From a virus: a stretch of 44,771 bases of DNA. Location: the UHGV virus genome UHGV-0180729. One strand, given 5' to 3'. This document shows, in pieces, positions 21,568-21,659 of this stretch. Made by a program: the position numbers and the translations under genes. Under the pieces are notes generated by a model. It saw only the letters and a program-made list of their open reading frames with translations. It was not told the origin of the DNA and made no database searches. Numbering within the stretch: the first letter of the stretch is position 1; every line of letters begins with the position of its first letter.

Positions 21568-21630
21568 GTGCCTGTGATTATTCCAGTTATTCCGCTCAAT
21601 TGTAAATGTTGGAATAAACTATTCGAATAG

Positions 21631-21659
21631 TTGACTTTTCACTAAAAATGTGCTAAGCT
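21631..21659 (+). promoter_or_regulatory. Sigma70-like promoter (TTGACT-N17-TAAGCT) preceded by an ATGTTGGAATAA box
   Basis: TTGACTtttcactaaaaatgtgcTAAGCT; upstream ATGTTGGAATAA at 21606-21617. Confidence 0.45.

Follow-up and report, generated by a model that had tools for sequence, protein, structure and literature searches.

What is the function of the DNA that separates the gene for a Hoc-like head decoration protein from the spanin genes in the virus genome UHGV-0180729? An earlier reading of this 44,771-nucleotide stretch (hereafter the window), made from the sequence alone, had pointed to a box repeated upstream of -35 elements before the spanin and scaffold genes, and to about 200 nt after the first promoter that might be a leader, an attenuator, or a small RNA. 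The analysis presented here indicates that the locus is composed of a promoter, a structured RNA, and a set of conserved boxes, and we regard this anatomy as highly probable. The explanation that best accounts for the whole, a small-RNA cassette with a leaky hairpin and GGAATA operators, is assigned a probability of about 0.5.

A megablast search with positions 21000-23200 returned 484 phage records, almost all of them from Escherichia and Salmonella siphoviruses of the subfamily Guernseyvirinae (Kagunavirus and Jerseyvirus). The best matches were ~91-92% identical, and by this similarity the window is a Kagunavirus genome. The local gene order in annotated relatives is head morphogenesis, (HNH), Hoc-like head decoration, the intergenic region, i-spanin/o-spanin, scaffold, and major capsid. 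The two box sites correspond to the Hoc-spanin (site 1) and spanin-scaffold (site 2) intergenic regions.

The promoter at site 1 is predicted to be a sigma-70 promoter with an extended -10 element on the plus strand (21631..21659), consisting of a -35 hexamer TTGACT (21631-21636), a 17-bp spacer, a TG dinucleotide (21651-21652), and a -10 hexamer TAAGCT (21654-21659). Transcription would start at approximately 21666-21667, and the site-1 boxes described below span about -36 to -88 relative to the promoter start. This promoter is conserved in the Kaguna alleles, in the Jersey alleles (TAGACT...TGtTACGCT), and in the second copies of the element that are found in some genomes. The -35 hexamer is TTGACT in the window and in the second copies, and TAGACT or TAGATT in the Jersey alleles. 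Only three of the six positions of the site-1 -10 hexamer match, yet T-12, A-11, and T-7 are kept in every allele. A simple promoter scan missed this promoter because the scan demands four matches of six in the -10 hexamer. The TG at -15/-14 is invariant, and the base between the TG and the hexamer is C, A, G, or T across phages; an invariant TG with a variable next base is the signature of an extended -10 element. The homologous stretch in the GenBank record of fBC-Eco01 is annotated as a predicted host promoter. The first promoter of the sequence-only reading therefore looks real, with the invariant TG and the varying next base conserved across all allele types.

The suggestion that the stretch downstream of this promoter is a leader or small RNA pointed in the right direction, since a structured RNA supported by covariation was found there on the plus strand. 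The predicted fold begins with a 5'-end hairpin, P1 (21668..21688), in which GCTTGT (21668-21673) is paired with ACAAGC (21683-21688). Four of the six P1 pairs change on both sides between the Kaguna and Jersey alleles (ACGCT/AGCGT), and 100% of the alignment cells pair. A long arm follows at 21691..21755, recovered by the structural alignment and the covariance model, and is made up of P2 (21691-21699 with 21748-21755), P3 (21703-21710 with 21737-21745), and P4 (21715-21720 with 21725-21730), the last carrying a GUAA loop. P2, defined with RNAalifold and the alignments, pairs CCGCGGNGC with GCN'UUCGG and contains a bulged C and two invariant G.U pairs. Among the 15 sequences used with RNAalifold, the sole variable pair of this long-range helix, N:N', is C-G, U-A, or A-U. 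The sequences of P3 and P4, both taken from the structural alignment, differ among six allele types with retention of pairing. The arm is followed by a conserved single-stranded tail, AAGGGCCAUACUCUAUUGCUUG (21756..21777), in which AAGGG(C/U)C ... (C/A)UAUUG is kept in all allele types, and then by an A+U-rich 3' part (21778..21839) that is 97-100% identical among the Kaguna-type alleles. The motifs ACUGAGAUU and GCCGU of this 3' part recur in the Jersey alleles and in the second copies. The two invariant G.U pairs of P2, together with the frequent G.U pairs in P4, make the fold specific to the plus strand, which is the strand read by the promoter. The window itself has A21727 where all of the fetched relatives have C, and this changes a G-C pair of P4 to a G.A mismatch (GTACTG versus GTCCTG).

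Two alignments were used to evaluate the fold. The first is a hand-made structural alignment of the four helices with 26 distinct sequences, each row of which was verified against the fetched DNA. The second was made by covariance model R1 from 101 hits and contains 46 distinct sequences, including one 14.5-bit noise hit. In the hand-made alignment 96.2% of the cells are paired, compared with 77.2% in shuffled alignments (0 of 500 reach the observed value) and 28-40% with slid partners; 15 of the 28 pairs are changed on both sides, and the covariation score is 0.477 versus 0.153. The corresponding values for the R1 alignment are 96.6% of the cells paired, 80.1% in shuffles, and 29-40% with slid partners, with 22 of 28 pairs changed on both sides and 0 of 500 shuffles reaching the observed values on all five measures. 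The covariance model matches the window at 21668-21777 with a score of 88 bits.

Several other readings of the same nucleotides were rejected. An ACCUG/CAGGU closing helix, seen in the minimum free energy fold of the single sequence, is not kept in the second copies or in the Jersey alleles, and P3 was preferred. A CCGC-GGN-GCGG mini-hairpin was dropped in favor of the long-range P2 after the N:N' covariation was found. Readings of the conserved junctions as an RfaH ops element, lambda boxA/boxB, a K-turn, or a loop E, and of GUUCGGAA as a T-loop, were made by eye only and were unconvincing.

The predicted RNA is a family absent from Rfam and fits no described family. A search of the whole window against Rfam 15 at the gathering scores gave no match. 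When positions 21560-21900 were searched at E values up to 10, the best scores were 14-16 bits against thresholds of 35-70, and nothing credible was found. ARAGORN reported 0 tRNA or tmRNA genes in the window. No description of this RNA was found in the library of papers searched for Kagunavirus or Guernseyvirinae transcription, promoters, and transcriptomes; one Kagunavirus RNA-seq paper gives gene-level classes only, and the fBC-Eco01 paper gives predicted promoters and terminators only.

The region had been described as lacking a credible open reading frame. A 36-amino acid reading frame beginning with ATG does exist at 21679-21789 in the window, and it is not conserved. It is intact in most of the Kaguna-type alleles and is annotated as a hypothetical protein in the records of Schulenburg, fBC-Eco01, and Bas70, but the ATG and 11 nt are deleted in all of the Jersey alleles (12 Jersey-type sequences lack the ATG), and the frame is shifted or truncated to 9, 17, or 34 amino acids in at least six Kaguna-type variants. 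The only variable codon takes L, V, F, I, G, and P, which includes radical changes (L to G or P). There is no ribosome-binding site upstream, and the substitutions track base pairing rather than codons. That the ~200 nt encode this protein is therefore extremely improbable, and the hypothetical protein annotated here in several GenBank records is very probably no gene. A mini-open reading frame, AUGUUUAAAUGA, situated before the hairpin, was rejected as well; it lacks a ribosome-binding site and is missing from the second copies.

The distribution of the element was examined with the intergenic query 21542-21883, which matches 181 records, nearly all with a best match of 95-99% identity. Coverage reaches at least 80% of the query in 179 records, and in these the block composed of the boxes, promoter, RNA, and hairpin is 95-99% identical, whereas the flanking genes of the same 179 phages are 76-92% identical to those of the window. 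The first 37 nt of the query, which hold the Hoc terminator, lie outside the conserved block. In Salmonella phage ER11 the boxes and promoter are 95.4% identical to the window, the 5' domain of the RNA 97.3%, and the 3' part 96.8%, compared with 76-83% for the Hoc, spanin, scaffold, and capsid genes. For the Kagunaviruses Schulenburg and Bas70 the corresponding values are 94%, 98-99%, and 99-100%, compared with 79-96% for the same genes. In E. coli, Salmonella, and Raoultella phages the cassette thus forms an island of high identity. The corresponding place in most Jerseyviruses is occupied by a diverged allele, ~50-65% identical in a plain alignment, with insertions or deletions of 11, 2, and 10-12 nt. 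In these comparisons the cassette, from the boxes through the promoter and RNA to the hairpin, behaves as a single unit.

Some Kagunavirus contigs and genomes carry a second copy of the element, 75-88% identical and located ~10-11 kb away in the early region, where it sits between a divergent helix-turn-helix (HTH) gene and a strong early promoter. The element was found in two places in 54 of the 181 matching records (~30%). The core promoter is the same in the second copy, but GGAATA boxes are absent. Its RNA has P3 and P4 sequences that are different yet paired, in five variant types, and it is provided with its own G+C-rich hairpin ~210-230 nt from the start. A separate strong early promoter follows the second copy directly, which speaks for a transcription unit that stands alone. 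The partial genome Ec1-ASingh has the copy-1 locus with an interior that resembles the second copy, which points to an exchange between copies. The window has a single copy of the RNA, and a search with model R1 gave no other.

Outside this group of phages the element was not detected. A blastn search of complete E. coli genomes with 11-nt words and E values up to 1 gave no match, a threshold at which short seed complementarity is invisible, and the lack of any match in these genomes argues that the element is not host-derived. A pattern scan of 185,579 species genomes gave only G+C-rich chance matches and no enterobacterial copy. In scans of metagenomes and IMG/VR, all of the true hits were ~40-45-kb Guernseyvirinae contigs. 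Model R1 found no match in HK022, Klebsiella phage VLCpiS11a, Salmonella phage STM-ZS, or Providencia phage Kokobel2. Distant Guernseyvirinae have long non-coding leaders with a promoter before the spanin genes and share the motifs AUAGUCUAUU and CAAUUGCUUG, and the RNA family may therefore be wider than the Kaguna/Jersey set. A motif-level resemblance to the RNA was noted by eye in VLCpiS11a. In Salmonella phage vB_STM-ZS (L243:32745-33110, minus strand), a 615-nt non-coding region with a TATAAT promoter-like site precedes the spanin gene. This region contains a long CAGGGAC...GUCCCUG hairpin with a GUAA loop and the sequence CCGGU...AUCGG-GG-AUAGUCUAUU, which by eye are like P3/P4 and P2 with the tail, differently arranged. 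Within the window, GATTTTACTGAGTGACTTACGCTG at 9950-9975 resembles the 3' motif GGTTTACTGAGATTACGCCG of the RNA and is followed by a hairpin and a T-run; this is either chance or a related 3' module. An antisense match of 13 nt at 30256-30268 was rejected, being on the wrong strand for the gene there and having an E value of 0.18.

The RNA is followed by a G+C-rich hairpin at 21840-21859 and a weak U tract, TTTACTTATC, found with a terminator scan (21840..21869, plus strand); together they end 14 nt before the spanin start codon. The hairpin has eight pairs, seven of them G-C, and a loop of 4 nt. Compensatory changes occur within the Kaguna alleles (CCCTGC/GCAGGG), within the Jersey alleles (CCCGAC/GTCGGG), and between the genera (CCCCGC/GCGGGG versus CCCGGC/GCCGGG). 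The Kaguna U tract, TTTACTTA, has 5 T in 8 and passes the simple scan; the Jersey U tract is poor (TTAGCGTA; TTAGCGTATA). Of the hairpin and U-run proposed just before the spanin start, the hairpin is well supported, but the U-run is weak in Kaguna and poor in Jersey alleles, and strong termination or attenuation is not supported. The hairpin is probably a leaky terminator at best, or a 3'-end structure. The i-spanin is encoded at 21884-22270 (ATG at 21884), and the embedded and overlapping o-spanin ends at 22379 (21884..22379, plus strand; from the reading frames and the annotation of relatives). No promoter-like site was found between the hairpin and the spanin start, and the spanin genes must therefore be read through the hairpin. 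Terminator-like hairpins also occur at 19283-19298, after the portal gene, and at 24231-24252, after the major capsid gene, with no promoter-like site before the next late gene; the late genes downstream of these hairpins would likewise depend on read-through.

The 12-mer ATGTTGGAATAA, on which the earlier claim of a repeated box was based, was found by exact match search at 21606..21617 (21606-21617) and at 22389-22400, both on the plus strand, and the window has no third exact copy. The match extends to 17 of 19 bases (ATGTTGGAATAAACTATTC versus ATGTTGGAATAATTTATTC). The TTGAC sequence said to follow each box by 8-15 nt begins 13 nt downstream of box 1 (21631) and 7 nt downstream of box 2 (22408), so that the stated range is nearly but not exactly right. 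The partial palindrome reported after each box is GGAATA-N3-TATTC, into which the box itself runs, at 21611-21624 and 22394-22407. The exact 12-mer repeat is by itself unremarkable: the window has 115 distinct repeated segments of at least 12 nt and 205 12-mer pairs, versus 67.5 ± 10 in shuffles, and allowing up to two mismatches the 12-mer has 3 matches versus 3.3 expected. The palindrome core occurs exactly twice in the window versus 0.03 copies expected, a count reached in only 1 of 100 shuffles. The same pair of palindromes, ~756-783 bp apart, is present in about 60 related loci, and in the complete Bas70 genome the pair represents the only two copies.

Kaguna- and Jersey-type alignments that list 74 distinct site-1 and 24 distinct site-2 sequences were used to compare the DNA sites. 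Conservation of the box in related phages was confirmed for the GGAATA-N3-TATTC core but not for the ATGTTG part, which is genus-specific; the Jersey-type alleles have TTAAG, TTCAG, or GTAAGT in its place. The GGAATA and TATTC half-sites are invariant, and the 3-bp center is variable (AAC, CTT, ATT). A pair of GGAATA repeats is located 15-18 bp upstream of each palindrome, as TATTCCAGTTATTCC on the minus strand at site 1 (21579-21593) and as GGAATATTCTGGAATAG on the plus strand at site 2 (22363-22379). The site-1 pair, block A (21579..21593), reads as two TATTCC repeats 9 bp apart, with GGAATA on the minus strand, and forms the left edge of the conserved cassette. Block A is near-invariant among the 74 distinct upstream sequences, and the adjoining 5 nt are free to vary. 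Conservation starts exactly at TATTCC, including in phages that have extra genes inserted on the left. Core palindrome 1, GGAATAAACTATTC (21611..21624), is centered near -49 of the predicted start and in Kagunaviruses overlaps a second, perfect palindrome of 16 bp, AACTATTCGAATAGTT (21617-21632). Its Jersey counterpart is GGAATACTTTATTC, with the half-sites kept and the spacer changed.

To the left of block A lies the intrinsic terminator of the gene for the Hoc-like head decoration protein (21547..21566, plus strand; GGCCCCGAAAGGGGC plus T5). It is outside the conserved cassette, and this stretch is only 54-86% identical to relatives, compared with 94-100% for the cassette on its right. The position immediately left of 21579 is an insertion hot spot: relatives (L001:2071-2592, L002:988-1430, L233:4908-5111) carry minus-strand genes there with their own early-type promoter, one gene being annotated as a DNA polymerase III sliding clamp, plus small open reading frames. 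A divergent site on the minus strand (21577-21606), TTTACA-18-AATAAT with a TG (10 of 12), was returned by the promoter scan and overlaps the TATTCC block; its -10 is not kept in relatives with an upstream insertion. In the Jerseyvirus records celemicas (L003:747-824) and ER21 (L004:746-824), a minus-strand tRNA-Ser is annotated over the end of the Hoc-like gene and the terminator, outside the RNA described here. This annotation is probably an artefact; ARAGORN finds no tRNA in the window.

The arrangement at site 2 is different. Its left part (22363..22385, plus strand) consists of GGAATATTCTGGAATAG followed by TTGCCT; GAATAGTTGCCTT, matched as a 13-nt repeat at 92%, is the counterpart of GAATAGTTGACTT at site 1 and a candidate -35. 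The second 12-mer (22389-22400) and core palindrome 2, GGAATAATTTATTC (22394-22407), identified by exact match and in the alignments, lie within 22389..22408 on the plus strand, and TGGAATAATTTATTCTTG is invariant in the Kaguna and Jersey alleles. The candidate promoter on the plus strand is TTGCCT (22380-22385), a 17-bp spacer, and TATTCT (22403-22408), with palindrome 2 overlapping the -10. An alternative is the extended -10 TGgAATAAT on the plus strand (22393-22401), in which the TG is invariant. The second box had been placed upstream of a TTGAC -35 element, and this was not supported: TTGACA (22408..22413, plus strand) has no -10 at 16-18 bp (the sequence there is CGGATT), is not conserved (TTGTTA in Jerseyviruses), and is probably no -35, and the box lies instead inside or overlapping the likelier promoter. 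The palindrome is consequently over the promoter core at site 2 and upstream of the core at site 1.

It is very likely that site 2 has its own scaffold/capsid promoter. In the metagenome contig L214 a small minus-strand gene and a terminator are inserted directly left of GGAATAGTTGCC, and the element (GGAATAGTTGCCTT) is unchanged; an insertion with a terminator that leaves the element intact favors an independent promoter. In Klebsiella phage VLCpiS11a the same hairpin is preceded at an equal distance by a canonical promoter, TTGTTA-17-TATATT, which also favors an independent promoter at site 2. The hairpin referred to is a scaffold-leader hairpin, AUCCGGG-AGG-CCCGGAU (22419..22435, plus strand; the scaffold ATG is at 22462), and either reading of the site-2 promoter puts the start a few nucleotides before it (22419-22435). 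The flanks of this hairpin covary (AU/AU in Kaguna, CA/UG in Jersey, AG/CU in one contig), and it may be a 5' stabilizer or a processing site. The L214 insert, located between the o-spanin stop and GGAATAGTTGCC, has its own TTGACA-17-TATTGT promoter and replaces the GGAATATTC part.

Are the boxes operators? The earlier proposal that they form the site of a regulator is supported to the extent that conserved footprints of the expected kind were found; the ATGTTG sequence is not the conserved unit. Invariant boxes between freely varying spacers are the footprint expected of a multi-site operator, and GGAATA-N3-TATTC is an inverted repeat with conserved half-sites that is present at two promoters and is conserved in relatives. 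We consider it reasonably probable that the GGAATA boxes are operators of a putative phage DNA-binding regulator. Two candidates for such a regulator were identified by domain matches, an HTH_3 (Cro/CI-type) protein encoded at 5205-5420 and an HTH_17 protein encoded at 7966-8169. The boxes resemble the operators of Cro/CI-type HTH proteins in that they contain a 14-bp inverted repeat with half-sites of 5-6 bp and a variable 3-bp center and are clustered at promoters, and the window encodes an HTH_3 protein. They differ in their placement, which is upstream of one promoter but on the -10 of the other; the binding protein is only a candidate, and a different palindrome, GAATAG-N4-CTATT, is found at the early promoters of this phage. 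That palindrome is contained in a second motif, TGAATAGTACCCTATTAT, which is found at 5115-5132, 5159-5176, 8582-8599, 10317-10334, and 30565-30582 (five matches with up to three mismatches versus 0.08 expected). This motif forms the spacer/-10 part of strong early-type promoters (ACTTGCAC-N17-TACTAT) and equals the PHIRE phage promoter consensus for fBC-Eco01.

The boxes could alternatively be relics of a duplicated promoter module, conserved as promoter DNA and served by no dedicated regulator. The homology between GAATAGTTGACTT at site 1 and GAATAGTTGCCTT at site 2 is in keeping with this, as are the right arm of palindrome 2, which is a plausible -10 (TATTCT), and TGGAATAAT, which is a plausible extended -10. 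The second copy of the RNA has the core promoter without the boxes, so the promoter does not need them, and exact 12-mer repeats are common in this genome. However, block A and palindrome 1 are far upstream of the site-1 -35, where no core function is expected, and they are nevertheless invariant amid varying spacers. The retention of half-sites with a change of spacer between genera is the pattern of a dimer-binding site, and a Klebsiella relative has a different repeated box at the same place. We regard the relic explanation as unlikely. The relative in question, VLCpiS11a, has the box TTGCGAG in six copies before the spanin gene (L242:35684-35905) and again six times in the early region before the helicase-primase gene (L242:5036-5286), with 14 in the genome versus 7.5 expected; this suggests lineage-specific regulator sites at this position.

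In the explanation that we favor, the cassette would be a small-RNA gene from which the host RNA polymerase makes an abundant, discrete RNA of ~200 nt. This RNA would act mainly via the invariant P2 helix and the tail by binding a conserved host or phage protein, and the 3' motifs (ACUGAGAUU and GCCGU) may add base pairing. The hairpin would be a leaky stop, with the polymerases that pass it providing a low-level spanin message. One phage DNA-binding protein would occupy the GGAATA sites, which lie beside the RNA promoter at site 1 and on the predicted scaffold/capsid promoter (TTGCCT-17-TATTCT) at site 2, and such a shared regulator would couple both promoters to the infection programme. A stand-alone RNA is preferred because both copies end in a hairpin at a similar length, because the second copy is directly followed by its own promoter, and because the 3' part is as constrained as the fold. 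The trans-acting, protein-binding role of the RNA is the more tentative component, and we place it somewhat below an even chance.

A number of points weigh against this explanation. Both ends of the transcript and the amount of read-through are deduced rather than measured quantities, and the protein partner and target of the RNA are putative only. Both alignments are structure-fitted, by hand or by model, and represent about six lineages, so the shuffle counts (0 of 500) overstate independence. The near-identity of the Kaguna-type cassette may in part be the result of recent horizontal spread rather than constraint. Copy 1 is near-universal, its position is always ahead of the spanin, scaffold, and capsid genes, and the hairpin and the spanins have no promoter between them, which fits a leader acting in cis at least equally well. 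In the Jersey alleles, with their poor U tract, the RNA may be mostly a 5' leader. With respect to the boxes, a location at -49 at site 1 and over the -10 at site 2 would have opposite effects for a simple repressor, and in ER11 a Kaguna-type site 1 occurs together with a site 2 of the Jersey type, which means that matching box flanks are not needed.

The main rival to a small RNA is a processive antiterminator of the kind encoded by put. The HK022 put RNAs (putL and putR) are cis-acting antiterminators, putL starts at +3, and put elements have two stem-loops (PMC9378689) and are ~73 nt in length. By analogy, the nascent RNA would stay on the polymerase, which would ignore the 21840 hairpin and later terminators, so that one promoter would cover the spanin, scaffold, capsid, and downstream late genes, and the second copy would do likewise for the early operon. 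As with put, the element is directly downstream of a sigma-70 promoter, the RNA begins at the predicted transcription start (as does HK022 putL), two stem-loops (P1 and the P2-P4 arm) are 1-2 nt apart, and two related copies in one genome each lie after a sigma-70 promoter and before a hairpin, just as the two put copies are each upstream of terminators. The absence of a promoter between the hairpin and the spanins, and the late-region terminators at 19283 and 24231 without a promoter after them, are consistent with such an activity. It would act with the host polymerase only, and a host polymerase common to E. coli and Salmonella would explain the extreme conservation. On the other hand, no similarity to HK022 was found: neither model R1 (E up to 1) nor nhmmer (E up to 10) finds anything in the complete HK022 genome. 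A structured domain of ~110 nt in a ~200-nt unit is found here rather than ~73 nt, with a short first hairpin, a long second arm of three helices, and a conserved 3' part with a terminal hairpin, and the setting is a virulent siphovirus, not the early operon of a lambdoid phage. Conservation of the 90-nt 3' part and of the hairpin equals that of the 5' domain, something that an element of the put type would not need. A strong early promoter of its own comes immediately after the second copy, an independent promoter is very likely at site 2, and no conserved -10-like pause element was seen by eye in the early transcribed region. We consider a put-like element unlikely.

A regulated attenuator or riboswitch-like leader, whose 5' domain would sense a protein or small molecule and set termination at 21840 and thereby the timing of spanin expression, is improbable. 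The layout is as expected, with a promoter, a conserved structured domain, and a hairpin right before the spanin ribosome-binding site, and the P4 region (21713-21729) is complementary to the 5' arm of the hairpin (21831-21847) at 13 of 17 positions in Kaguna and as CGGGCGU/ACGCCCG in Jersey (by eye). This alternative pairing is, however, a complementarity of G/C runs that by eye is not kept in the second-copy variants, and no conserved terminator/antiterminator alternative was found. In addition, the second copy precedes an independent promoter and not a regulated gene, the weak or poor U tract leaves little termination to regulate, and there is no Rfam riboswitch match. Even less probable, to the point of being hard to sustain, is that the locus functions as DNA, as a transcription-primed origin or as a packaging or recombination site, with the hairpins relevant to single-stranded DNA, if to anything. 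A conserved non-coding island with a promoter and clustered boxes of the protein-binding type, two direct repeats that bracket a 783-bp segment, and gene-insertion hot spots at both left edges could all be accommodated by a DNA element. It would not account for the covariation, with its invariant and frequent G.U pairs, which is strand-specific and agrees in direction with the promoter; the second copy includes the RNA but lacks the boxes, and nothing links the locus to terminase or replication genes.

The locus can also be compared with better known phage elements. The late leader of lambda (pR'-tR', '6S RNA') has a constitutive sigma-70 promoter, a leader of ~200 nt, and an intrinsic terminator right before the lysis genes (including Rz/Rz1) and the head genes. 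It has a protein-binding DNA element at the promoter, needs Q, and has its Q-binding element between the -35 and -10. The overall layout of promoter, ~200-nt leader, terminator, and lysis genes is the same here, but the lambda leader is not known to be a covariation-supported structured RNA family, and the site-1 boxes are upstream of the -35. A tblastn search of the window with HK022 Q, which represents one Q family only, found no lambda-type Q homologue (best E value 0.78). The cassette resembles a moron: it brings a promoter and a terminal hairpin of its own, its homology ends sharply at the boundaries, it is exchanged between phages whose flanks have diverged, and a subset of genomes has an accessory second copy. 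It is unlike a moron in that the cargo is an RNA and not a protein gene, and copy 1 is near-universal in the subfamily, and thus core rather than accessory. The RNase III hairpins of T7 (R1.1 and relatives) are irregular intergenic hairpins of 60-70 nt with internal loops and several related copies per genome. In contrast, the hairpin here is at the very 5' end of the primary transcript, and the conservation is on a basal helix with G.U pairs and on a single-stranded tail.

A phage small-RNA or leader cassette with an operator at its promoters would be known in kind; the RNA itself would be new. It is conceivable, although doubtful, that the RNA represents a new polymerase-directed phage class, unrelated in sequence to put, in which the G.U helix and the tail dock on the host RNA polymerase or another core machine and act in cis (antitermination) or in trans (reprogramming or sequestration). 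The promoter and RNA would then constitute a cassette that moves among phages of E. coli and Salmonella, and the second copy would be an option serving the early operon. If the target of the RNA is the polymerase or another host factor, phages would have either just a second kind of antiterminator that works independently of proteins or a new small RNA with a defined fold. Kaguna- and Jerseyviruses rank among the phages most frequently isolated for therapy and biocontrol of E. coli and Salmonella, and no study of transcriptional control in the Guernseyvirinae was found. In these phages the RNA is better conserved than the surrounding capsid genes and has been exchanged between genera, and it stands beside a two-site pattern that links the RNA/spanin and scaffold/capsid promoters.

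A further arrangement of this general kind was noted elsewhere in the window. At ~14114-14215, within a region free of open reading frames (13998-14230), the sequence TTGACA-N17-GATACT is followed ~45 nt later by a strong hairpin (CCCGGC...GCCGGG) and T7, which could be a short transcription unit or a small RNA.

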